Source: Nitrososphaerota archaeon (GTDB lineage Archaea; Thermoproteota; Nitrososphaeria; Nitrososphaerales; Gagatemarchaeaceae). From it: DNA of 32,000 nucleotides. The stretch is from contig JAFMAD010000004.1 of NCBI GenBank assembly GCA_029785195.1, positions 69,329-101,328 on the forward strand. The letters run 5' to 3'. The notes beneath the pieces are model-generated. The model saw nothing but the letters and a program-made list of their open reading frames with translations. It had not been told where the DNA came from and did no database searches. A program made the position numbers and the translations under genes. Below, piece by piece: positions 1-12,586 of the stretch; position 1 is the stretch's first letter, and each line of letters starts with the position of its first letter.

Positions 1-3000
1 CGAGGGCCTCCTCTCTGTCCTTGTAGAGCTGCGAGAGCATAGGAGCCATCCCTTGCTCCCTATCGGGTCCCAGCCCCTCTCCCACGGCCCAGGACACCAG
101 GGCCCTTGCCCCTGACTCGTCGAGGCCTTCCATGCCATCCCGAAGCAGCAGGGCCAGACGGCCTCTGCCCAATGGGACCACCGAGGGGACCGAGAACGGC
201 CCGTGGTGGTCGCCCAAGGAGTATCGCTGAATCGCCTTGGGGACCTTCCAGACCTCTATCCCATGCATCCAGGAGAGGGCATCTAGGTCGCCCGAATTGA
301 ATGCCACGACCCTGGTGTACACCTCGTTCATTATCGCTTCTATGTCATTGGCCCTCGCTTCGGGTCTTTGCGGGAGGTCGGGATAGGAGACGCCATCCAA
401 GGGCCGCGCCTTCCATCGTGTCGCCAGAGACCTAAGGCTCCCTTGGTGGCGCCCATTCACCGTCGTTATCGCCTGCGGGATTGAAGGGAAGAGCTTGACG
501 AGCGACTGGTTCCCTACGAAAGCCTCCACCGGCATCTTCAGGCTAATCGAGTTCGATTCGCCCACCGGCCACGGCACCGCGTCCATCGCAACGGCCCACC
601 CCTTATCTTCTGCAATCGACAGCAACACCAGGACGGCTTCCGTCTGCTGCGAATCGACTGCCATCCCCTTGACGAGCATGCGCAGGAACCGGCGTGTCGC
701 ATCACCGTCCAGGCGCGAGACCCTGAGGGCTCCAAGCCTCTCCGATGCCGACTGTGCGCCGGTCGTCATCGGGATTACCGCCCAGGCGCCGAGGCTCACG
801 GGTTGGTCGATGACACCTCCGTCGTCCAACAGGACGTCCCCCGGTCTCAGCCAGCTGCCCGCGACGAAGACCACCCTCTTCTCGCCGAAGAGCTCTTTCG
901 CCTCGGGTGGGACCTCCTCCGAGTGGGAGTCTAGCACCTTCCAGATGGCCTCGTAGCTTGCCCTGGACCTCGGCCAGCTCGACCCGTCCGACCTCGCCTT
1001 GTCGGACATCAGGACCAAGGCATCTAGCAGGTCCACCGTCTGCATCCTCGAGGTCGCTCCAAGCGCGTCGAGCAAATCTCTCAACGGAGAGGCTTCGTCG
1101 GGAGATAGCACGAGGAGCCCTATCGAGTCGGGTGGGACCGGGAACGCTTCCGGCTTGGCGACAATCCTGACCTTGGCCCCGTCGTACCATCTTTCACCCC
1201 AGTACATGGCAGGCTTCGCCAGCGCGGACCTCCATCTCTCGCGTTCCTTGAGGGGTAGTTTCCTCAAAGATGCCGACAGGCCAACCAGGAGCGAACCGGG
1301 GGGTTCTCGACCGTTCGCGGCGCACTTGGAGTACACCTCCGTCATCTGTCCTAGGGACGGCGAGATTGCGAGGCCCAGGTACATCGCCTTGGCCCCTCCC
1401 TTGTCGCCTAGCGCTTCGACCTTGGCGCGCACGTCGTCGTCCATCTCATCGAGGTCGACGTATGACGCATTGGTCTGCCCCAGAATCGAGACTTTTTCCG
1501 GCGTGGGAAGCATCGCAAGACCCGGCTGGGCGACGCCGGTGATGCCGACGGGCACCCAATCGACCTCCGCCAGTCCGCCTCGGATGGACTCGAGTTGGTT
1601 GGAGTCGTACTCGACCAGGAGGGTGCCGAAGATGTTCGAGAGCAGGCGTCTGTCCGGAGGACGCTCCCTCGACAGGCCCTTGATTATCTGGACGACCTTG
1701 GCAAGGTCCAGCTGGACCACGGCGCCGAGCGCCTCGAGGGTCGAATTCTTCCATCTCTCCGAATCGAAGTCCGGGCTGAGCTGGTGCAACCCCAAGCTTG
1801 CGAGAATTGGACCTGCACCCCGCGCCATCCTGCCGGCCGGATACCAGTCCCCTTTCGGGTCGTAGAGGCATGGCACCTTGGCCATGTCGTCCGGCTCCAC
1901 TCCCCTCTCCGTCTTCTTCTTGTCGAAGTAGACCTGGATGGCAGCCAGCATGGCCTTCTTCTGGGCCTTGAGGACCTCCTCCTTCTCCACGCCAAGGAAG
2001 TCCCTAAGCATCTTGTGCTCGAAAAGCGATCCTAGCCGGGGCGAGATGAAGCTGCGCACGAAGTTCGTCGGGTCGCCAGGCTTCTCCGCCAAGGCCACTA
2101 TGTCGAGGCGGCTCGCCACCCTACGCTTGTCGGAATCGGAGTAGCCCTTCAAATCGAAGATTCTAATTTTCCGCTGCATCTCCGCTGTCAATCCGGGTAC
2201 GGCGAAGGGCATCACGAAAATCCACTCCCTCCGGTAGTTCTCACCTTCGTGCCCCCGATGATCGCGGACGTCTGGAGGCGGGCCCAACGTCCTGACCCCG
2301 TCCAGCACGAACGGGACGAAGCTCTTGCCTATTGCCTTGTCCAACGCCCACGACTCGTGGGTGACCACCTTGAAGACGAGGCGAGAAATCAACCTGTAAT
2401 CTTCGTCCTTGATGTCCTCGAATCTCTGGGGGTCATCGTGGAACTCGGTGTCTATCCATTGCGGGACCTCGTTGAAGGCCACGTCGTGGCGCCACGAGCC
2501 GTCCCTCTCCAGCTCTGTAATCACTCGTTGGATTTCGGGATGGATTCGACGGGTCGGCGAGAGTATCGAGTCCAACTCCGACAGTTCGGACGGCAGACGT
2601 GGGAATGAACCCATCGTCCGGAAGGTGCCTTCAGCGTCCGGGACCAGGGACAGTCCCCTTAGCGCCTCGCCTCCCTTCGCGGTAAGCGCGTACCTGAGGA
2701 CCGACTCGGTGTTGGGCCTGTCGAGCCGCACAGAGTTCGCGCCTGTCGTCCTTCCGTAGCGCAGCGGGCCCTTCGTCTCGAGCACCTTCCAGGCGTCGAC
2801 GAAGTGTTGTACCCCGAAGCTCACTGCCTCGGCCCTGTCCTTCAGCCAGTGAATCTCGTCGAACTTTGAGGTGAACGCCGCTGGCATAGCCGCCTTTCCG
2901 AGTAGCTCGACCACCCTTCTCTCGACTTCGTTTGAGACGTAGTACGACTGCCGTGGCGGGTGCCACGTCCCATCGCCTGTGACGAGTATGGGTTGGCCGA

Positions 3001-4474
3001 ACAGCCAGTCCCTGAGCTCCTTGCCTTCCTCGACTCCCCATGAGATATCCTCCTTGTCAGGTCGCATCCACTCGCGAATCTCCCCTATGGGGAGGGACTG
3101 GAGCACCAGGGCTTCGGCTTCCGCTGGCATTTGGCCAAGGGACCTGACAGATGCAAGGAAGGCGGGGAACGTGTCCTTGTATAGTCTGGCTATCGAACGC
3201 ATGCATTCTCGGTACCACTCCCCGTTGACCTCGTCGTTCCCTTGGATGTCGACCCCCGTGCGGTTCTCTACAGGGAACAGGTGGGCAGAGAACGCGAACC
3301 TGTTCCGGCCCCTCGAAGGCAGGGGAATGACGCTGTAGAGGTACTGTTTCCTGGCAGGGAAGAGGGGGAATAGGATGTGCACGTGGTTCTTCTTTATCGG
3401 CAAATCGGTGGGCCCCTTCTTCAGGTCTATTCGGATCACGCCTCTGCTGCCCCTCAGCAGGAAGAGCGCCTTCCCTTCATCGTCCTTGACCGACGCCGAG
3501 GCCGCGAAGTACCTCTTCGCATCAGGTGTCTGGTAGTCCCACCCGTTGGAGTCGAAGGAGGGCGGGCAGGTGCCTATCTCCACTGCTTCGTGTGGGTCCC
3601 AGCGGTACCACGTCTTCCCTGAGGCCGCCAATCCCTGCTTGACTTCGACGACCCGCGCCTTCTCGAGAGGCATGTTCAGGCCGAAGTCTCTTTCGGCCTG
3701 GTACGCTTCAGGGCGGTTGTCAGCGTTCCAGACGATTCGAATCGCCTTGAGCCTCTGGCAGCACAAGAGGACGTCGCAGAGGTAGCCCTTCAGGTCGTTG
3801 TAGAACGACCTCACGTCCTCAGGGCCCCATCGAGGGAAGTCCTTGGCCGCGAAGGGCCTTTCCCGCGCACCAATCACCTCCTTCGCGGCCGTCTCGTCTC
3901 GCCAGGGGAGCCTGAAGAGCACACCCTTCGCCTTCTCGTCTTTGCTTCCCGCGTACGGGGAGTGGAGATGTCCCTCCAGGTTGTTCCACTCCATGCTGAG
4001 CGGGTTCAGGGCCCTGGAGACGACGTTCGAGTGCACCTCCGGGTGGTTCGTGATTGCGTACACCGTCTGGAACCCGCTCCCGAAGTGGCCGGTCGATTCC
4101 AAGTCGTATTCCTTGAAGCGCTTGAGGACCCTCGACGACCTGTCGAAGTCGCACCCCTCATATGACCCCTTTGGCCCGATGGTCGTGAAGGCCCTCCCGT
4201 TGTTTGCGATGTAGAGGGCGTCCTTCTCGAACCTGAGTACCAGAATAGTCGCCCCGGCGTCGTCTGCGTTCTGCACCAGTTCCCGGATGACGAACTTGCT
4301 CCTGTCCTCGTCCTCCGTCCGCGTGACAGCTATCCTCGTCTTGATCCAGTCGAGGAAGTTCAGCGAGTAGCCCTTGTCCATGTCGTCCTGGCACATCCAC
4401 CTGCCATCGGGCGCGGTAACTTCGTCAGGGAAGGGTGGCTCTTTCCCGCAAACGACACACACGACCTTTGCCAA
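1..4474 (-). CDS. Giant sacsin-like GHKL (Bergerat-fold) ATPase with an N-terminal Cys-rich zinc-ribbon-like segment. Partial: the C-terminus lies beyond the window start.
   Basis: My own reverse-strand translation from TTG 4474-4472 has no stop down to base 2 (1491 codons). That TTG lies 2 nt after the helicase TAG stop at 4479-4477. The ORF is absent from the supplied track, presumably because it has no stop inside the window. Motifs read: CVVCGKE..(18)..WMCQDD; FVIRELVQNADDAGA (ExxxNxxD N-box); STGHFGSGFQTVYAITNHP (Gly-rich ATP-lid box); YSVIPLPSRGRNRFAFSAHLFPVENRTG...EWYRECMRSIARLY (resembles the sacsin repeat region). The start is uncertain: GTG 4462 or downstream ATGs are alternatives. 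Confidence 0.85.
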   Translation of the reverse strand, partial: MAKVVCVVCGKEPPFPDEVTAPDGRWMCQDDMDKGYSLNFLDWIKTRIAVTRTEDEDRSKFVIRELVQNADDAGATILVLRFEKDALYIANNGRAFTTIGPKGSYEGCDFDRSSRVLKRFKEYDLESTGHFGSGFQTVYAITNHPEVHSNVVSRALNPLSMEWNNLEGHLHSPYAGSKDEKAKGVLFRLPWRDETAAKEVIGARERPFAAKDFPRWGPEDVRSFYNDLKGYLCDVLLCCQRLKAIRIVWNADNRPEAYQAERDFGLNMPLEKARVVEVKQGLAASGKTWYRWDPHEAVEIGTCPPSFDSNGWDYQTPDAKRYFAASASVKDDEGKALFLLRGSRGVIRIDLKKGPTDLPIKKNHVHILFPLFPARKQYLYSVIPLPSRGRNRFAFSAHLFPVENRTGVDIQGNDEVNGEWYRECMRSIARLYKDTFPAFLASVRSLGQMPAEAEALVLQSLPIGEIREWMRPDKEDISWGVEEGKELRDWLFGQPILVTGDGTWHPPRQSYYVSNEVERRVVELLGKAAMPAAFTSKFDEIHWLKDRAEAVSFGVQHFVDAWKVLETKGPLRYGRTTGANSVRLDRPNTESVLRYALTAKGGEALRGLSLVPDAEGTFRTMGSFPRLPSELSELDSILSPTRRIHPEIQRVITELERDGSWRHDVAFNEVPQWIDTEFHDDPQRFEDIKDEDYRLISRLVFKVVTHESWALDKAIGKSFVPFVLDGVRTLGPPPDVRDHRGHEGENYRREWIFVMPFAVPGLTAEMQRKIRIFDLKGYSDSDKRRVASRLDIVALAEKPGDPTNFVRSFISPRLGSLFEHKMLRDFLGVEKEEVLKAQKKAMLAAIQVYFDKKKTERGVEPDDMAKVPCLYDPKGDWYPAGRMARGAGPILASLGLHQLSPDFDSERWKNSTLEALGAVVQLDLAKVVQIIKGLSRERPPDRRLLSNIFGTLLVEYDSNQLESIRGGLAEVDWVPVGITGVAQPGLAMLPTPEKVSILGQTNASYVDLDEMDDDVRAKVEALGDKGGAKAMYLGLAISPSLGQMTEVYSKCAANGREPPGSLLVGLSASLRKLPLKERERWRSALAKPAMYWGERWYDGAKVRIVAKPEAFPVPPDSIGLLVLSPDEASPLRDLLDALGATSRMQTVDLLDALVLMSDKARSDGSSWPRSRASYEAIWKVLDSHSEEVPPEAKELFGEKRVVFVAGSWLRPGDVLLDDGGVIDQPVSLGAWAVIPMTTGAQSASERLGALRVSRLDGDATRRFLRMLVKGMAVDSQQTEAVLVLLSIAEDKGWAVAMDAVPWPVGESNSISLKMPVEAFVGNQSLVKLFPSIPQAITTVNGRHQGSLRSLATRWKARPLDGVSYPDLPQRPEARANDIEAIMNEVYTRVVAFNSGDLDALSWMHGIEVWKVPKAIQRYSLGDHHGPFSVPSVVPLGRGRLALLLRDGMEGLDESGARALVSWAVGEGLGPDREQGMAPMLSQLYKDREEAL

Positions 4475-4476
4475 GT

Positions 4477-7278
4477 CTAGGAGCCTGACCTCTCTGCCGC
4501 GCTCGGGCGGATTGTCGCTATATACTCTAAGGACGCATGCGGTCCCGCCGATTCTTCGGTGTCGTCATGCCCTCCCTTTCTTGTCTTGACCCATCTTTCG
4601 AAGTCGGCCTCCACCTCCGTGCTGACGTGTCGGGGTAGGAGAATCGAAGGCGCGAATCTGAGCGGAGCAGTCTCCAGGGAAGAGACTGTCTCTGCGAGGA
4701 GAGTTCCCGTCAGCTTCTCGGCTCTACCATGGGAGTCGGACCAATACGTGATGTTGGCCTCTGTGCCCAATCGGCCTCTGCAAGAGTACCTACAGATTGT
4801 GACTCCAGAGGTCATCCCGTTCCATTCGAAGCCGAGAGGTTTTCCGCTGTCAGGGGGGTCGTTGAACGAATTCAGCGTCACGACGGAAGCCAGCTTCACG
4901 AGCGGGCTCAACGGCGTCGCGAACAAGCCCTCGCGCGCGGCGTGCTTCGCAAGAGTAATCATCAGTTCCTTGTCCCGGTAGGAAAGGAGCTGTGCCCTGA
5001 CCCGCTCCTCTAGGCCGTGTCCGGTGGCGTCTTTGATGGCTATGACGTCGTCGTCGGCGACGGGCCCGATTACTACGCCCCCTTCGTCTTCGAGGGCGAC
5101 TTTGGCTCTCCCACCAGAGAACACGGAAAGCAGCCGGAGCACTGGCAACCAACTCAACCTTCCGAGGTCGCCCGACCGCTGGGCCCTGAGCGTCCTGGTC
5201 TGCTCGTCGAGTAGGTCCTCCACCCCTGCTAACGGTCCAACTTCGACGAGTTCCTTTTCGGTCGCAGCCCGCCTCTCTTCGACGATTCTGGCTTCTGCTT
5301 CGCCAGTCCCAGTAGCGGCCGACTCGAGTACCGCAGGGGAATCACCGATGGCCCTTGCGAAAATCTCGAGCCTCGTATATAATGTTCCGAGTATGTGTTC
5401 GTCCAAGGAGCCCTCGACGACTAGGTTGTGGATGGAAACCTCCTTCGAAGCCTGTCCTATCCTGTCGATTCTCCCGATGCGCTGCTCCACCCTCTGCGGG
5501 TTGTATGGGAAGTCGTAGTTCGCAAGCGTGTCGGCTGCCTGGATGTCCAACCCTTCGGAAAGGAAGTCGGTCGAAATCAGCACCGCAGGCCCCTCCCAGG
5601 ACTTGAAGGCACTCAGTGTCTCCTCCACCTTGAAGTCGCTGTCGTCGCCAGAAAGCGCGAAGGCCCTCATGCCGTCCAAGTCGCCGAGCCTGCGGGTGAG
5701 GTAGCCCCAAGTGTGCCTCCATTGCGTGAAGACGATTGCCTTGTGGGGCCTCCCATCGGACCGAGGTTCTCTCAGCTGAAGAAGAATCGAGCGCAGCTTC
5801 TCCAGCTTGCTGTCGGTCCTTAGCAGCCCGAACTTGGCGACCAACTCCGAGCATTTCTCCCGGGCCCCGGGCGGGAGGGAGCCTCGGACCACGTGGAAGC
5901 CCTCGGCGTCGTCCCTCTCCTTGACAGAGAGGGGGCTCTCGATTTCATCCCCATGCTGCCAGACGTCGAAGCCCTCCATGCCCCCGTTGAGTAGCTCGAC
6001 CGTCGCGGGCAGGCAGGAGGAGAGCTGCATCCTGTGCACGTGGCTGAAGTGTGATTGCAGCAACGAGTCGACCTCGTGGTACAGGCTCGACTCCGACACT
6101 CTATTCTTCCCTCGATTGCCTGTCCTCGAGCGGGGACGTCTGTTTAGGGCCACCGAGTGGTTGGTCACGACCCGGGTCCGGGACTCCCCTACGTCGCTCC
6201 TGCGAGCCCTCGTCATGATGGCTTCGAATGGGTTCAGAAGGGCCAGTCGTTGGGCGAGGCCGGCCCTCAGGTTATGGGACGATTCGGTACCATAGCTTTC
6301 GAGCAGGGATCCGACTTCGCCGTCGTTGGCACCTTCCGCGAGGGAAATCAGCCTCTCGGTCACGCTAATCCCTAGTGGCCGGCCAGCCAGTACGTCCCGT
6401 ATGGTAGTGTTGACGAGGGCTGCCGAGGATGCGTCCCGGTCGAACTCGGCCTTCTTCACCTCCCTCCCGAAGATGACCTCGAGCACGCGGCGGAGATCGT
6501 CCATCTCGAGATGGACTGGGGTCGCGGAGAGACCCACGGCCGCCTTGGCGATGGCCGATATCTGGAACGCCATCGTCCTCCTCTGAGTGTCCCCGCCCCG
6601 GCCAATCAGGTTGTGGACCTCGTCGATTACCACCAGGTCGATGGACGGCGGCGTGCGTGCCTCGGCTGCGGTGCCTTCCCAATTCGAGTCGTAGGAGACG
6701 ATTGCCCTGAACCCGCCCTTCGTGAACAGCAGTTCCTTGAGCCGTCTGCCGCTCGTTATCTCGAAGTACAGCCCGAACCTGCGCCACAGCTCGTCTCGCC
6801 ACTTCAGTCTCAGGCCGCCAGGGCATAGGACTAGGACCCTGGCCGAAGGCTCCGACGTGAGTTCCTCCACCAGTATGTACGCGGATTCGATGGTCTTGCC
6901 CAGGCCTACTTCGTCTGCGACCAGGATTCTACGCGAAGGCGACCGCAGGTACTTCAGCAGAGGGCGGAACTGGTAGGCGTTGAAATCCACCTTAGCGTCG
7001 AACGCCGCCCACGTCCCGACGGCCTTCGACGACATCCTCGCTACGATTCGCATTAGCCCGTCCCTCGGTGAGGAGATTCCCTCGAGCGCGCAGATTTCGA
7101 GCCCGGACTGCTGCAGGGGTTGTGCCAAGGACGGAGGCAAAGGCTTGACTCTTCTCAGGTGGAAAGTGTCTGCGCGCTCGGCGACGCTATATCCTGTCCC
7201 CGTGACGACGTAGATTGGCCCTTCCTTCCCTTTCGGACACACTAGTCTTCCAATCTTGGAGTCTTCGGGCCCAATCAT
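4477..7278 (-). CDS. SNF2-family (SF2) DNA-dependent ATPase/helicase, 933 aa, with an uncharacterised C-terminal extension of about 280 aa
   Basis: Track ORF. Motif I LVADEVGLGKTIES; motif II DLVVIDEVHNL (DExH); motif III GLSATPV; motifs V/VI LISTDFLSEGLDIQAADTLANYDFPYNPQRVEQRIGRIDRIGQ. I saw no recognisable nuclease or methyltransferase motif in either terminal extension. Confidence 0.93.
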   Translation of the reverse strand: MIGPEDSKIGRLVCPKGKEGPIYVVTGTGYSVAERADTFHLRRVKPLPPSLAQPLQQSGLEICALEGISSPRDGLMRIVARMSSKAVGTWAAFDAKVDFNAYQFRPLLKYLRSPSRRILVADEVGLGKTIESAYILVEELTSEPSARVLVLCPGGLRLKWRDELWRRFGLYFEITSGRRLKELLFTKGGFRAIVSYDSNWEGTAAEARTPPSIDLVVIDEVHNLIGRGGDTQRRTMAFQISAIAKAAVGLSATPVHLEMDDLRRVLEVIFGREVKKAEFDRDASSAALVNTTIRDVLAGRPLGISVTERLISLAEGANDGEVGSLLESYGTESSHNLRAGLAQRLALLNPFEAIMTRARRSDVGESRTRVVTNHSVALNRRPRSRTGNRGKNRVSESSLYHEVDSLLQSHFSHVHRMQLSSCLPATVELLNGGMEGFDVWQHGDEIESPLSVKERDDAEGFHVVRGSLPPGAREKCSELVAKFGLLRTDSKLEKLRSILLQLREPRSDGRPHKAIVFTQWRHTWGYLTRRLGDLDGMRAFALSGDDSDFKVEETLSAFKSWEGPAVLISTDFLSEGLDIQAADTLANYDFPYNPQRVEQRIGRIDRIGQASKEVSIHNLVVEGSLDEHILGTLYTRLEIFARAIGDSPAVLESAATGTGEAEARIVEERRAATEKELVEVGPLAGVEDLLDEQTRTLRAQRSGDLGRLSWLPVLRLLSVFSGGRAKVALEDEGGVVIGPVADDDVIAIKDATGHGLEERVRAQLLSYRDKELMITLAKHAAREGLFATPLSPLVKLASVVTLNSFNDPPDSGKPLGFEWNGMTSGVTICRYSCRGRLGTEANITYWSDSHGRAEKLTGTLLAETVSSLETAPLRFAPSILLPRHVSTEVEADFERWVKTRKGGHDDTEESAGPHASLEYIATIRPSAAERSGS

Positions 7279-7366: not shown

Positions 7367-8260
7367 GTGCTGTGTCATGACAGCTCCGTTCGACAAAATC
7401 GCATCAATCTGACGGACGCGTGTTTCACGTTCTTATGTCGCGACCGAAATCCAAAGAGCGTGGCGACATGGCTGGCTGTCGGCCATCCTGACGACTGGCG
7501 GACGGCCAGAGAAAGAGGGATTTGGGGCCTCGCCGAAAGGCACGTCCGACTCTGGCAGGAGACCGCTCCGGGCGACGAAATCGTCTTCTACGCGACATGG
7601 CCCGTGCGAGGGATAATAGGTCACGGGCGGATTGAGTCCAAGTTCAGGTCCGGCGAGACGGTCTGGCCTCGGGAGCTGGCCGAGAACAGGGTGATATGGC
7701 CCTACAGGCTCAGACTCAGAATAGAGTACCTACTTCCGGAGGAGCTGTGGGGGTTCCGGCGCGTTGAATCCGAGCCGGCCAAGAGGAGGGCGCAGGGAGG
7801 GTTCCAACGTCTCGAAGAGAAACTCGCCAGCCGTGTAATCGCCGAGCTGGTTGAGCGAGAAACAAGCCCAGAGTTGACTCCCGTGCTCCAGGGCTTCTTC
7901 CGAAGCGTGCAGAGCGTGCTGGAAGCATCCAGTGGAGCTATCAGATGGCCCGAAGATGAGTTCAGAACTCTCCTTAAAGGCATGACAGAGGTGCTAATGG
8001 ATAATGCGTTCATGATAACCGAGAGAGGCGACCGTTATGGAAGGAGTCATCAAGTGACGCTGCTGGTCATGAAGGAGGTCGAGGTATTCACCTCAGCGGT
8101 CGAAAGGGACTCGAATCAACCGATGAATCCCGAGCTCGTCCGCTCAAGGGCCGGGCAGGCGAAGACCATCAAGGACACGTTAGAGGCGCACCTGAAAATC
8201 CCCTCCTTCCTGAAGGGCGTCTTCGAAATCGTCAATGAACTCCTCAACATGGTCAAATGA
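7367..8260 (+). CDS. EVE/PUA-like (ASCH/EVE superfamily) N-terminal domain protein with an unknown, probably helical C-terminal half of about 160 aa
   Basis: Track ORF. WLAVGHPDDWRTARERGIWGLAERHVRLWQETAPGDEIVFYATWPVRGIIGHGRIESKF...VIWPYRLRLRIEYL follows the pattern of archaeal EVE-domain proteins (W..n.W....g.WG...GD.i.FY....i.G.g.i...yP.R..i). The true start may be the in-frame GTG at 7460 (MATWLAVG...). Confidence 0.65.
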   Translation: MLCHDSSVRQNRINLTDACFTFLCRDRNPKSVATWLAVGHPDDWRTARERGIWGLAERHVRLWQETAPGDEIVFYATWPVRGIIGHGRIESKFRSGETVWPRELAENRVIWPYRLRLRIEYLLPEELWGFRRVESEPAKRRAQGGFQRLEEKLASRVIAELVERETSPELTPVLQGFFRSVQSVLEASSGAIRWPEDEFRTLLKGMTEVLMDNAFMITERGDRYGRSHQVTLLVMKEVEVFTSAVERDSNQPMNPELVRSRAGQAKTIKDTLEAHLKIPSFLKGVFEIVNELLNMVK

Positions 8261-8326
8261 TGGGGACGGTTAGACACTCAGGTCTCTCGAGTCTCCAAGC
8301 CTTAATATTCGAGATTCGAATCACGA

Positions 8327-9652
8327 GTGATGGACTCTGAGCACGAGTGGCTAACGGGTCTCAGGTACGAGGACTTGTGGGCATACATCAAAACACAGAA
8401 GGGGAACAATGAAGCCCAAAGGAGTTACAACGCGGGGATAGGGGCGCTACTAAATGAAATCAACAAAGTCCCGCAATTCAGGGGCAAAATCTCCCCAGAC
8501 GACGTAGATTACGCCTTCAAGGAGGCGCTCGAAAAAATCAAGGAACCTCTGAGTAGGACGGGCAAGAGAAAGCTGGAAGCCATCCTGCGAAAGTGGATGG
8601 GAGTGGAGCGTGACTACGACTTCCACTTTGACTTGGGCTGGCTGATTGGCTTCCCTGTGGGCTTCCAGTTCGGCTATGGAGAGTTGAGGCCCTTCTCCAG
8701 GTTGCCAAGGATGAACAGGCCTTACGTCGAACGGGGCTTTGAGATGGCAGCGGCGAGGCTGAAAACGCCAGCCAGGATTGATTTCGCTCCTAGTGAGGTC
8801 GAACGATGGTTCCTCTGTATAAGACAGCGGACGATTGGATGGCATAACGCGGCAGAGAGAGCAGATTTTCTCGCTACCCGGAGCCTCGCAGCGTACGAGC
8901 TCGTGACTGGAGTCGCAGAAATCGAATCCTGGTCTTTGGCAACTCCTCCTCGCCACGACCTTGTCGTTGTTTGTCACGACAGGAAGCGGACGGGAGGCCG
9001 CTATCACGCTCGCCCACCCCTCCAACTCGTCATTAATTTCCCCGGTTCAGGTTTCGATGAACTGATGAACAAGATGACTAGGCTGATGAGGAATGAGAAC
9101 CGCACCGAAATTGAGAACAGGATAATGGCTGTAGTCGAAATCTTCGCTATGCTCCAGGGAGGGGTGCAACTGGAGGCAAAGTACCTGCTGAAAGTAATCT
9201 CGCTTGAGGCCCTTTTCCTATCTGAGGACGACCGTGACTATCTCGGGTACAGACTGGCCGAAAAGATTGCGTTCCTGCTTGGTGACGACAAGCTCTGGAT
9301 GGCCATAACCTACGAAAGGCTACCACACTTGGGGTTCAGCGGGAATCTGAGAGAACTGGGAGACCAATATATCGACGACAAATTCGCGGAGACCAAGAAG
9401 TCAGACGCGCGGCGCCGTTTGAACAGAGAGGTCGTTAGGCTTTATCGCAAGAGATCGGCATTCGCTCACCAGCAACGAAGGAACTTGGAGAGCCTCATAA
9501 CCCCGTACGATTACGATATGGTCTCATGGTTGCTGAGACTTTCAGTGGTCAAGATGCTTTCCCTTACAGAAAGAGGAGTAACCCACCTCAGGAAGCGGAG
9601 CGACGACGACCCTTCGAGCTTCGACCAACTCGTTGAGAAGCTGAAGTACTGA
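8327..9652 (+). CDS. Hypothetical 441-aa protein with a C-terminal HEPN-like Rx4H motif (Apea/Abi-like arrangement, tentative)
   Basis: Track ORF. The C-terminal region reads VISLEALFLSEDD ... VVRLYRKRSAFAHQQRRN. RSAFAH is an R-x4-H motif, preceded upstream by a conserved-looking acidic helix, as in HEPN RNases. I did not recognise the N-terminal 300 aa. Confidence 0.7.
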   Translation: MMDSEHEWLTGLRYEDLWAYIKTQKGNNEAQRSYNAGIGALLNEINKVPQFRGKISPDDVDYAFKEALEKIKEPLSRTGKRKLEAILRKWMGVERDYDFHFDLGWLIGFPVGFQFGYGELRPFSRLPRMNRPYVERGFEMAAARLKTPARIDFAPSEVERWFLCIRQRTIGWHNAAERADFLATRSLAAYELVTGVAEIESWSLATPPRHDLVVVCHDRKRTGGRYHARPPLQLVINFPGSGFDELMNKMTRLMRNENRTEIENRIMAVVEIFAMLQGGVQLEAKYLLKVISLEALFLSEDDRDYLGYRLAEKIAFLLGDDKLWMAITYERLPHLGFSGNLRELGDQYIDDKFAETKKSDARRRLNREVVRLYRKRSAFAHQQRRNLESLITPYDYDMVSWLLRLSVVKMLSLTERGVTHLRKRSDDDPSSFDQLVEKLKY

Positions 9653-9755
9653 GGAGGATTGCTTCATCGTCAAATCATCGGCGAAGCATGTTCGAAGCGC
9701 GCGGTAGTCAAGCGGTTGAAGGCGGAATGTCTTTTATCATCCAACAGATTCGGCC

Positions 9756-10862
9756 TTGCCTGCTACTTTGTCTGAAACCGATGAGGATTCTGGTTTTCTG
9801 GAGCCGCTTGAGGACGAATTGGAAGACATGCGCAGAGCAGTACGAATCGAGAGCAAGCTGTACTCCTATCCGGCGGACTTCCCCCTGCAAGTCCTCCATG
9901 AGAAGATAGACAGCGGAGAGATAGACTTCCCTCCGTTCCAAAGGAAGTACGTCTGGACAAAGGAGAAGGCGTCCATGCTGATTGACTCTTTCATGCGACG
10001 CCTTCCTGTGCCTCCCGTGTACTTGTTCACCACGTCCAAGGGTACTCTGCTTGTGGTAGACGGCCAACAGAGATTACGAACCATCAAGCGGTTCTTCGAG
10101 GACAGGTGGGAAGACGGTGAGGAATTCGAACTCGTCTTAGCAGACGACAACCCTCTGAACAACAAGCGATTCCAAGACCTCGACGAAGCAGATCAGAAGA
10201 AGCTCAAGAATGCTGTGATGAGATCCATGGTGATAGAGCCCAAGTCCGGCAGATATGACAATGCGATGTACGACATCTTCGAGAGGTTGAACACGGGTGG
10301 GATGCTCCTGATGCCTCAGGAAATCAGGAACTGCGTGTACCACGGAGCCTTGAATGACTCGATTATCAGACTAAACAGACTGGCTGATTGGAGGACTATA
10401 GTCGGCACCGCAGAGGAGGACAAGCGCCTCAGAGACGTCGAGCTCATTCTGAGAGGGGTGGCCCTGTCGAATCTGGGGAAGGACATCGGCCCCGAACCTC
10501 CTTTGAGGTATAAACCATCCATGAAACAATTCCTCAACGACTTCATGAAGACTATGCAGGATCCGAGCAAGGAATGGGTTGGTGACATGGAATCGACTTT
10601 TACGACGACTGCTCGGCTTATTGTCAAGACTTTGGGTGAAACGCCGTTTCATGTCACACGAGCGATGAGGGCGCCCACATACGACGCTGTGTTCGTCGCC
10701 TTCGCCAAGCACCCCGAATCAATCCCCCCGGATATCAAGGAAAGGTACGAACTGCTTAAGGCAGATGCCGATTTCAAGAAGTATACCGAAGAGCGTCCAA
10801 CCGGTGCGAAGAGTGTCAATGGACGGCTCGACCTAGCGGAGAAAGTGCTTTTTGGGGGATAG
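9756..10862 (+). CDS. DUF262 (ParB/Srx-like, GmrSD N-terminal type) protein without a DUF1524/HNH nuclease domain
   Basis: Track ORF. IDFPPFQRKYVWTKEKASMLIDSFMRRLPVPPVYLF...LLVVDGQQRLRTIKRFF carries the FQRxxVW and DGQQR signature motifs. The C-terminal 170 aa has no H..N..H-type nuclease motif. The TTG start at 9756 is uncertain. Confidence 0.88.
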   Translation: MPATLSETDEDSGFLEPLEDELEDMRRAVRIESKLYSYPADFPLQVLHEKIDSGEIDFPPFQRKYVWTKEKASMLIDSFMRRLPVPPVYLFTTSKGTLLVVDGQQRLRTIKRFFEDRWEDGEEFELVLADDNPLNNKRFQDLDEADQKKLKNAVMRSMVIEPKSGRYDNAMYDIFERLNTGGMLLMPQEIRNCVYHGALNDSIIRLNRLADWRTIVGTAEEDKRLRDVELILRGVALSNLGKDIGPEPPLRYKPSMKQFLNDFMKTMQDPSKEWVGDMESTFTTTARLIVKTLGETPFHVTRAMRAPTYDAVFVAFAKHPESIPPDIKERYELLKADADFKKYTEERPTGAKSVNGRLDLAEKVLFGG

Positions 10863-10864
10863 CG

Positions 10865-11356
10865 ATGCCCTTCAGCGACGTGACGGACCGGCTCAACGAA
10901 GACAGCTTGGTCCTCGACATGCTCCGGAGAAGCAGGATCGACCTACGAACTATCTCGAAACTCGAGAACATGATGGTAAGAGACCTGCTTATCGTCATGT
11001 ACACGACCTACCAAGAACACGTGGTCGAGGTGGTGCTGAAGAAGGTGAAACGCCACAGCGATAATCACGAAGCCATTGTGAACTTCGTCCGGCGCAAGAT
11101 TGAGGAAACCAACATCGACACCTTCGCTTTGAAGAAGCTGCTGAAGCAACTACTTCCGAGTTATGCGTCAAACTTCGAGTTCGCATTGAAAGACAGAGAG
11201 ACCACTTCCGCTTACATGAACATAATCACAGGGAGAATAGATGTAGCTCATCACCAGGGGAACAACCTCCAGATTGGTTCCCTCGTCGAAATCGCAGAAG
11301 CTCACGTCCATGCTCAACGATTGCTACAATCATTCGAGAGTTGCATGTATGCATGA
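10865..11356 (+). CDS. Small (163 aa) HEPN-like protein with an Rx4H motif, of the kind associated with DUF262 (MAE_28990/MAE_18760-like, tentative)
   Basis: Track ORF. Its ATG lies 2 nt after the DUF262 stop, so the pair is tightly coupled. NIITGRIDVAHHQGN contains R-IDVA-H (Rx4H) in the C-terminal third of an all-helical-looking protein. Confidence 0.65.
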   Translation: MPFSDVTDRLNEDSLVLDMLRRSRIDLRTISKLENMMVRDLLIVMYTTYQEHVVEVVLKKVKRHSDNHEAIVNFVRRKIEETNIDTFALKKLLKQLLPSYASNFEFALKDRETTSAYMNIITGRIDVAHHQGNNLQIGSLVEIAEAHVHAQRLLQSFESCMYA

Positions 11357-11441
11357 TTCGCATGCTGGATTCTGTGTTCCATCTCAATCGTCGGGTTCGG
11401 GTACGTACCATTAAGTAAGTAGCCTGCCGCCAGTTTGAGAA

Positions 11442-12143
11442 TTGGAATTTCAAAGGATAGATGACATCCAGGCAAGCACCGTGAAGGTATCCAGCGATGC
11501 GGGGGAAGGAAGCGGTGTGCTTCTCGGAAAAAGTGGGCATGTAGCTACTTGTGCCCATGTCGTAGGAGAGAACAAGAAGGGTGAAATCCTATGGTTCGGC
11601 GCCCCCGACCTCAACACAGCTTACCAAGTCGAAGCAATCGACGAGGAATGGGATGTCGCTGTCCTCAGAACGGACCCCAACCTGTTCGAGCAACTGAATG
11701 GGACCGTCAAGGTCAATCCGCTAACTTTCGTCACAACCAGGGGTGAAATCAAAGCAGGAATGGTAATCGGTATCTGTGGCTATCCGTGGGTGACAGGATT
11801 GCGCGAGAAGCCGGACATATCTAGGCATCCTCCTTCGATTACACTTGGAATCGTATCCCTTTGGCGAGGCGAACTCAGCGAGACAATCATGCTCGGCGCG
11901 AATCTTCACCAGGGAAATAGCGGCGGTCCGGTGTTTAACGAATTCGGTCTGGTTCTGGGGCTTGCTTCGCAGAGCACGGTGTACAAGAAGGAGGAGATTG
12001 GAAGCGTGCTTTCGATGGGTTTGCCGCTGGGCTACGGCGAAATGGTCCCGATGCAATTGGTAAACATCCTGATAGTGAGGGAGAGGCTCAAGGTCGAGTG
12101 GACCCCAACGAGTCGGATAGGTAGTCATTTCAGCAAATCGTAG
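11442..12143 (+). CDS. Trypsin-like (chymotrypsin-fold, Trypsin_2/DegP-protease-domain type) serine protease with no signal peptide and no PDZ domain
   Basis: Track ORF. Triad contexts: GSGVLLGKSGHVATCAHVV (His), WDVAVLRT (Asp), HQGNSGGPVFNEFGLVLGL (Ser). The N-terminus MEFQRIDDIQASTVKV is not hydrophobic. Confidence 0.85.
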   Translation: MEFQRIDDIQASTVKVSSDAGEGSGVLLGKSGHVATCAHVVGENKKGEILWFGAPDLNTAYQVEAIDEEWDVAVLRTDPNLFEQLNGTVKVNPLTFVTTRGEIKAGMVIGICGYPWVTGLREKPDISRHPPSITLGIVSLWRGELSETIMLGANLHQGNSGGPVFNEFGLVLGLASQSTVYKKEEIGSVLSMGLPLGYGEMVPMQLVNILIVRERLKVEWTPTSRIGSHFSKS

Positions 12144-12166
12144 TGCTAGATTACCTTCATCGCAGG

Positions 12167-12586
12167 TTACCCTTGCACCAAGGGCCTCCCAAATATCTTG
12201 CTTTGGTGCCACATGAGGAACCTCTTCGCAGGTGCCCCTTTCCCTAGCTTCCTGAAACTCAGAGTGACCAATCTAACCTGTCTCAGGGTCGCCGGGGTGA
12301 AGGCCTTTCGGCAATAACTCACCCGGTAAGACGGGTACTCTAAGGTGATGAATCCCTCCCCGAAAAGGTTGTCATGAAGGGAACACATGAGGATGACATT
12401 CTCGTCCTGTCCTCGCTCCTTCTCACCTTTTGCCCAGCCCTTGATATGGCCGGCTATCAGGAGCGGTGGGGAATCTATTTTGCAGAGTGCACATTGGGTG
12501 CCATAACGAACAAGGGCACGTCTCCTAATTTCTCTCCTAGGACTGTTTTCGGTCCGAGTCCCGTCGGAATCGAGTCTGACTCGTTC
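12167..12586 (-). pseudogene. HNH endonuclease (HNH_2-like, of the kind found in type IV restriction proteins), 5'-truncated remnant
   Basis: My translation of the stop-to-stop frame reads ...RRRALVRYGTQCALCKIDSPPLLIAGHIKGWAKGEKERGQDENVILMCSLHDNLFGEGFITLE... This gives CxxC, then the HI and N motifs, then LHDNLF. There is no ATG, GTG or TTG between the upstream in-frame TAG (12589-12587) and the CxxC. The first canonical start (12388, the track's 73-aa ORF) falls after the first catalytic His. Confidence 0.5.

Follow-up and report, generated by a model that had tools for sequence, protein, structure and literature searches.

We examined a two-gene cassette in a 32,000-nucleotide (nt) stretch of DNA from a Nitrososphaerota archaeon (contig JAFMAD010000004.1), referred to here as the window. 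The first gene, gene A, encodes a DUF262 sensor-type protein, and the second, gene B, encodes a small HEPN protein that is a putative RNase. Comparison with known systems makes it very probable that the locus is a defense pair of the PD-T4-2 type. The system is a known one, and the window holds a divergent archaeal copy of it; it is neither a new system nor a new category. The PD-T4-2 architecture had already been predicted in 2013, its defense against T4 was demonstrated in 2022, and both PADLOC and RefSeq naming include it. The GenBank version of protein A, 364 amino acids (aa) long and 100% identical, comes from a Nitrososphaerota archaeon metagenome-assembled genome (MAG), and the window is therefore archaeal.

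PD-T4-2 comes from E. coli ECOR65, where it was annotated as 'DUF262, HEPN' with two open reading frames (ORFs) over 1540 bp, compared with 1601 bp for both ORFs in the window. The second PD-T4-2 ORF had no GenBank annotation, and HHpred matched its product, PD-T4-2B, to PF18735 (97.8%, residues 23-162). The cloned system protects E. coli K-12 from T4, and T4 forms plaques again on ECOR65 once the system is deleted (Vassallo et al. 2022). An earlier reading of the window sequence, the original prediction, had taken the DUF262-HEPN pair to be experimentally uncharacterized. This no longer holds, as the pair corresponds to PD-T4-2, validated against T4 both in K-12 and by the ECOR65 deletion. 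Reviews list PD-T4-2, Menshen and Dazbog as mechanistically uncharacterized DUF262 systems without DUF1524. The same prediction stated that comparative surveys had noted an association with HEPN domains. The survey of Anantharaman et al. (2013) gives the RiboL-PSP-HEPN family as 'in operon with ParB' and as a distant relative of AbiD/AbiF, and it lists ParB/DUF262-HEPN fusions in other HEPN families.

The window and PD-T4-2 share the same layout. In each, a DUF262 protein of about 365 aa without DUF1524 is followed, in the same order and with adjacent or overlapping genes, by a RiboL-PSP-type HEPN protein of about 160-190 aa with an Rx4H motif. The A proteins are homologous over their full length, and the B families are related at the profile level. 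Copies occur on mobile elements and in defense islands. The window copy differs from PD-T4-2 in its archaeal host, in a B protein that on its own lies beyond the PD-T4-2_B models and the Pfam cut-off, and in residues Q50 and I125 of that protein.

Gene A (9756-10862, plus strand) begins with TTG and encodes 368 aa. At E ≤ 1 its only Pfam match is GmrSD_N (PF03235; E=1.1e-28), which marks a DUF262/ParB-like NTPase domain at aa 48-195 (nt 9897-10340). The three DUF262 motifs, as defined by Li et al. (2025), are all present. Motif I, of the QRxxxW type, is FQRKYVW (aa 61-67, nt 9936-9956); motif II, of the DGxQR type, is DGQQR (aa 102-106, nt 10059-10073); and motif III, of the FxxxN type, is FERLN (aa 175-179, nt 10278-10292). 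The original prediction had claimed a 368-aa DUF262 protein with the first two of these motifs; ORF and motifs are as it described them, and FERLN is intact as well. Every residue of the three motifs is invariant in 24 homologues of protein A with 42-83% identity (Q62, R63, W67, D102, G103, Q105, R106, F175, R177, L178 and N179). Protein A has no match in NCBIfam. In PHROGs, phrog_2598 covers it over its full length (E=3.5e-65).

The remainder of protein A (aa 196-368, nt 10341-10859) forms an all-helical C-terminal domain. An AlphaFold2 model with a predicted local distance difference test score (pLDDT) of 82 has an alpha/beta N-terminal domain and an all-helical C-terminal half with helices at 198-366. 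The best fold matches of this model in the PDB are BrxU (7p9k) and SspE (6jiv), followed by ParB/Noc/KorB proteins. Like protein A, the enzymes GmrSD, BrxU and SspE combine an N-terminal DUF262 NTPase carrying QRxxxW, DGxQR and FxxxN with a helical middle domain. They continue into a C-terminal DUF1524 His-Me nuclease, whereas protein A ends after its helical domain, at 368 aa compared with 560-590 aa for BrxU and SspE.

The predicted absence of a His-Me/HNH (DUF1524) nuclease was borne out, and a cryptic nuclease was also sought in the C-terminus. Hidden Markov model searches gave no Pfam match to DUF1524 or HNH at E ≤ 1 in protein A or in any of the 24 family members scanned, and the C-terminal domain itself had no Pfam match at this threshold in any of the 24 members. 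GmrSD_N was the sole Pfam family matched by these members, just as in protein A. A PDB sequence search with protein A found no match outside the N-terminal DUF262 region, and the significant fold matches of the model include no nuclease fold. A conserved P-F-H...D stretch (aa 297-310) was considered as a His-Me site and rejected; its near-invariant Asn305 is Arg in the window.

Protein A belongs to the NsnA/PD-T4-2_A type. Li et al. (2025) describe an architecture in which ParB-DUF262 is followed by a C-terminal DNA-binding domain, 'ParBDB', that is common to the middle domains of GmrSD, SspE and DndB. The helical domain of protein A corresponds to the ParBDB of NsnA-type proteins. In PADLOC the top match of protein A is NsnA (E=1.4e-59, aa 41-364). 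The PD-T4-2_A model also matches it, with aa 59-364 aligned to profile positions 56-360 of 363 (E=2.5e-45). The original prediction had read the cassette as a GmrSD enzyme with a swapped effector. That reading is not upheld, as the whole 368-aa protein, C-terminal helical domain included, aligns with the NsnA and PD-T4-2_A models. By sequence comparison, protein A is homologous to both PD-T4-2_A and NsnA; it is not a truncated GmrSD.

Gene A ends with a TAG stop codon (10860-10862) in the context GGA TAG CG ATG. After a 2-nt spacer, CG (10863-10864), gene B begins with ATG and runs from 10865 to 11356 on the plus strand, encoding 163 aa. This spacing is compatible with translational coupling, and gene B is probably coupled to gene A. 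As the original prediction had noted along with the 2-nt distance, protein B contains R124-I-D-V-A-H129 (nt 11234-11251), in which Arg and His form the predicted catalytic dyad of a HEPN domain. It is a minimal HEPN protein of the RiboL-PSP-HEPN family and the PD-T4-2_B type, and it stands solo, without an L-PSP fusion.

The assignment of protein B to the HEPN family, which the original prediction had also made, is carried by its family. ORFs downstream of DUF262 relatives were collected and a profile was iterated, which joined 72 sequences in one family; conservation was counted in a 73-sequence alignment, A3. HEPN_RiboL-PSP (PF18735) is matched by 70 of the 73 members, with a best E of 5.8e-19. 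HEPN_MAE_28990 is also matched by 17 members, and the Apea, Swt1, AbiU2 or DUF4145 HEPN models by a few. H129 is invariant (73/73), and position 124 is R in 66 members and K in 7. Database names of the members are 'HEPN domain-containing protein' or 'RiboL-PSP-HEPN domain-containing protein'. A word-indexed search found 4 close relatives of window B, and a profile search of 1.84 billion representatives gave 78 matches at E ≤ 1e-3 with lengths of 130-241 aa. Window B alone matches PF18735 with E=2.7e-4 (21.3 bits), and a homologue 85% identical to it also matches PF18735.

The AlphaFold2 model of protein B, for which the alignment was built from database proteins, has a pLDDT of 87, a predicted template modelling score of 0.80 and seven helices: 3-22, 27-64, three short ones at 68-108, 111-129 and 140-162. 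Rx4H closes the penultimate helix (111-129), from which a low-confidence loop leads into the last helix. Anantharaman et al. locate Rx4-6H in the HEPN fold where core helix 3 ends and the loop to helix 4 starts, and describe an insert between helices 2 and 3; the helix order of the model fits this topology. HEPN membership of protein B rests on profile matches, the Rx4H motif and predicted topology.

The frequency with which this DUF262 subfamily is followed by the small protein was counted, as the original prediction had proposed. When one genome per GTDB species was scanned, 560 relatives of gene A emerged, of which the best 80 loci were kept; 4 from look-ups of encoding contigs brought the set to 84. 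The best 80 loci are spread over many bacterial phyla and the archaea, the latter represented by Bathyarchaeia, Nitrososphaerales, Cenarchaeum, Nitrosopumilaceae, Methanosarcinaceae, Thermoplasmata and Aenigmatarchaeota. Downstream of gene A and on its strand, 79/84 loci carry a member of the B family. Two of the five loci without one end 18 and 218 nt past gene A, leaving 82 evaluable loci, 79 of which have the A-then-B pair. Of the 79 pairs, 74 have a gap between the genes of -17 to +21 nt; 18 pairs overlap and 40 are separated by 0-10 nt. The pairing is far beyond chance and the linkage is nearly obligate.

In three of the loci with distant genes, DDE or IS21-type (IstA/IstB) transposase genes sit exactly between the DUF262 and HEPN genes, which are 1.2-2.6 kb apart (insertions at L008:6257-7684; L011:4512-5675, minus strand; and L050:6251-8596, minus strand). 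In a Vicinamibacterales locus (L017:6053-7822), a gene for a 589-aa protein with an AIPR (abortive infection) domain overlaps the DUF262 stop in place of the mini-HEPN gene, a natural effector exchange within the DUF262 clade. The flanking genes vary by locus and include an MmeI-like methyltransferase/restriction gene, Mrr, CHAT/STAND and integrase. Since the flanks differ between loci, the conserved unit is the A-B pair.

For a direct comparison, E. coli copies were retrieved with tblastn against plasmids followed by blastn. Querying E. coli genomes at the DNA level with the copy from a 'Klebsiella' MAG (L046) returned nothing. Pairs are present on an IncX1 plasmid and on a 3.9-kb plasmid, where RefSeq names the first protein 'DUF262 domain-containing protein' and the second 'HEPN domain-containing protein', and a chromosomal pair lies between cI and the integrase of a P2-like prophage, a hotspot. 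Protein A of the prophage pair matches PD-T4-2_A at 1.8e-55 and its protein B matches PD-T4-2_B at 1.4e-8. Window A is 32% identical to the prophage A protein over 353 aa, C-terminal domain included (BLASTP E=1e-58). With hhalign, the B-family profile A3 matched the prophage B protein with 98.1% probability (E=8.7e-14, 146 columns), and the B-family profile matched the two E. coli plasmid B proteins with 96.8% and 98.4%; Rx4H was aligned in each case.

The strong NsnA match raises the possibility that the window holds a remnant of Menshen (NsnABC) that has lost NsnB and NsnC, the small downstream ORF being unrelated. Menshen NsnA shares the ParB-DUF262 plus ParBDB architecture and supplies the best PADLOC match of gene A, and most predicted effector domains of Menshen are RNases encoded apart from the sensor, as is predicted for the window. 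The NsnA model is unspecific, however. It is also the top match for E. coli A proteins with HEPN partners, including those of the pair that matches PD-T4-2_A and PD-T4-2_B, so a best match to NsnA does not indicate Menshen. The window also lacks the rest of that system, namely the NsnB ABC ATPase (DUF3696) transducer and the inPIN-effector NsnC, and a single small HEPN gene follows gene A directly. Among the neighbors of the pair in the window, neither the ORF list nor Pfam and PADLOC gave a match to NsnB, NsnC or ATPase models, and the adjacent genes include neither an ABC ATPase nor anything NsnC-like. Because the family of the small ORF accompanies the DUF262 clade in 79/82 loci, a Menshen remnant is effectively excluded, and membership of the window locus in Menshen was rejected.

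The genomic settings of the related pairs bear on a second alternative, in which the cassette is a toxin-antitoxin-like addiction or stabilization module. Here the HEPN toxin would be restrained by the DUF262 protein, the main role would be maintenance of mobile elements, and phage defense would be a side effect. Related pairs on conjugative IncX1 plasmids adjoin the replication gene, another pair makes up much of the 3.9-kb E. coli plasmid, and a further one occupies the P2-like prophage hotspot. There are known HEPN toxins that a partner neutralizes, such as HepT/MNT, toxin-antitoxin genes are typically as tightly coupled as these two, and insertion sequences have entered between the genes in three loci. 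On the other hand, PD-T4-2 was selected and validated as a phage defense, and its deletion was obtained in the native strain. Furthermore, protein A is a 360-aa NTPase with a DNA-binding domain and invariant NTPase motifs, which exceeds the needs of an antitoxin. We regard such a module as unlikely to be the main explanation; the two roles are compatible and not mutually exclusive. The small plasmid is NZ_AP027509.1 (L086, 3948 bp, non-mobilizable), whose four annotated genes are the DUF262-HEPN pair, a VbhA-family antitoxin and replication initiation.

A working model for the defense pair can be drawn from its better known relatives. In GmrSD, BrxU and SspE, DUF262 senses modified DNA and uses its NTPase activity to activate the nuclease (Li et al. 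2025; review). HEPN domains with Rx4H are metal-independent RNases, usually dimers, that are held in check by partners (Anantharaman et al.; HepT/MNT literature). By analogy, protein A is a predicted sensor and switch that would bind invading, possibly modified, DNA. Binding or hydrolysis of nucleoside triphosphate (NTP) at its DGxQR site may act as a conformational switch, as in GmrSD, BrxU and SspE. In place of activating a fused DUF1524 DNase, protein A would then release or assemble protein B, most likely as a HEPN dimer. Protein B, predicted from its motif and family to be a metal-independent RNase effector, would cleave RNA (tRNA, rRNA or mRNA) without metal ions, and this cleavage could stop virus production, probably via growth arrest or abortive infection. 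The arrangement would differ from that of GmrSD, BrxU and SspE in placing the effector in a separate gene and in a predicted RNA target instead of DNA. We infer physical contact between the proteins, the RNase activity of protein B and the nature of its target. A PD-T4-2-type pair acting from sensor to RNase is the best explanation overall and a reasonably probable one. The specific mechanism is put forward more tentatively, as a serious possibility that falls short of being probable.

Several observations weigh against this explanation. The 21.3-bit score of window B is under the PF18735 gathering cut-off of 28.4 bits, and window B matches no PADLOC model at E ≤ 1, PD-T4-2_B included. Foldseek of its model against the PDB and BFVD gave no significant match; the matches were generic helical bundles with a best E of 0.46, and the HEPN toxins 7ae6 and 7ae9 scored no better than an E of about 4. 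This outcome neither confirms nor contradicts a HEPN fold. A sequence-profile search of the PDB with the B family likewise found nothing significant. Two positions near the predicted active site also deviate. Position 50 is Glu in 62/73 family members and Gln in the window subclade, and the residue directly after the Arg is H or N in 55/73 members and Ile (I125) in the window subclade. Finally, no later mechanistic or biochemical study of any PD-T4-2 protein was found in the literature searched. As to the PADLOC result, weak matches to PD-T4-2_B (about 2e-3) occur in only 2-3 of the 73 family members, and the partner on the E. coli IncX1 plasmid likewise escapes the PD-T4-2_B models, so these models are narrow.

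The deviating residues are common to window B and its nearest relatives. Anantharaman et al. regard a helix-2 acidic residue and a polar one (N/D/H) directly after the Arg as auxiliary to HEPN catalysis, typical but not obligatory. In the window subclade the polar residue is displaced by one position (GRI-N/D-VAH), and window B has the acidic residues E34 and E51 near position 50. R124 and H129 are kept in window B and its subclade. With the dyad kept but the helix-2 acid replaced by Gln and the polar residue after the Arg replaced by Ile, the Nitrososphaerota subclade might be a functionally shifted PD-T4-2, with another RNA chemistry or specificity, or with a HEPN protein that is active only when its DUF262 partner completes it. 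More broadly, the family could stand for a principle in which an RNase is licensed in trans by an NTP-dependent DNA sensor of the ParB type. We consider this proposal possible, if rather doubtful.

The same residues could be read in the opposite sense, with the DUF262/ParB-like protein as the effector that cleaves nucleic acid and the HEPN protein, at least in the archaeal subclade of the window, as a subunit without catalytic activity that serves regulation or binds RNA or nucleotides. Comparative surveys treat ParB-like domains as DNases ('ParB nuclease'; Anantharaman et al. 2013), non-catalytic HEPN domains exist, and the window subclade has Q50 in place of the conserved acidic residue and I125 in place of the polar one. 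Retention of R124 and H129 in the window and its subclade, with the His invariant in the whole family, argues the other way. In addition, characterized DUF262 systems have a DUF262 domain that is an NTPase sensor and a nuclease that resides in a separate domain. A role of protein A as the effector is accordingly quite improbable, and a DUF262 sensor with a HEPN RNase is preferred.

The pair lies in a plus-strand block at about 7400-12500 that comprises an EVE-like gene, a 441-aa gene, the DUF262-HEPN pair and a protease gene. The fraction of G+C is 0.53 in 7367-12143 and 0.59 in the rest of the window, which suggests that the block is a horizontally acquired island. The window has no tRNA gene, and no integrase stood out among its listed ORFs. 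The context of the pair is a defense island with a DrmD-like SNF2 helicase, a TmtA-like ATPase, an EVE-like protein and a trypsin-like protease.

Directly upstream of the pair is the 441-aa ORF (8327-9652, plus strand), which has no match in Pfam, PADLOC, NCBIfam or PHROGs. Near its C-terminus it has an Rx4H-like RSAFAH (aa 376-381, nt 9452-9469), and judged by this motif it could be another HEPN-type protein. It is not related to the partner-HEPN family in hhalign (0.3% probability). Downstream, 85 nt after the HEPN gene, is a gene for a standalone 233-aa trypsin-like serine protease (11442-12143, plus strand; Trypsin_2 E=1e-16); in PADLOC it weakly matches RT-Protease_XI, LmuA and PDC-M35A in their protease parts. 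The 441-aa protein and the protease were considered as parts of the cassette and rejected; they have no counterparts beside the closest homologous pair, and other loci are flanked differently.

In a 297-aa protein at the start of the block (7367-8260, plus strand), the N-terminus holds a weak EVE/PUA-like domain (Pfam EVE, E=4.2e-4; NCBIfam PRK00809, 1.7e-8). EVE domains bind modified bases. In one DUF262 relative, P0078 (518 aa), an EVE domain is fused to DUF262, and locus L057 contains a 518-aa DUF262 ORF. Two divergently oriented genes occupy the minus strand (2-7278). One encodes a 933-aa SNF2 helicase that is most similar to DISARM DrmD (PADLOC 1.1e-66; under the NCBIfam equivalog cut-off). 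The ORF after it, at least 1493 aa long, continues past the edge of the window, and its N-terminus has a Sacsin/Hsp90-like ATPase domain and a match to PADLOC TmtA (Tiamat) at 1.7e-24, over the N-terminal ~135 aa only. No methylase or DrmA/B was seen with these two genes in the window. They may constitute another defense system.

Because protein B escapes both the PADLOC PD-T4-2_B models and the Pfam threshold, standard defense-finding models would miss the window copy. The window adds a divergent archaeal member to the family, together with a quantified linkage of the two genes, and its value lies in annotation and in the choice of candidates for work on mechanism. PD-T4-2-type pairs reach the Nitrososphaerota, Bathyarchaeia, Thermoplasmata, Methanosarcinaceae and Aenigmatarchaeota. 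As a compact conserved pair with clear mutational targets (DGQQR, R124/H129 and Q50), the cassette is a reasonable system in which to study the control of an effector in trans by a DUF262 NTPase.

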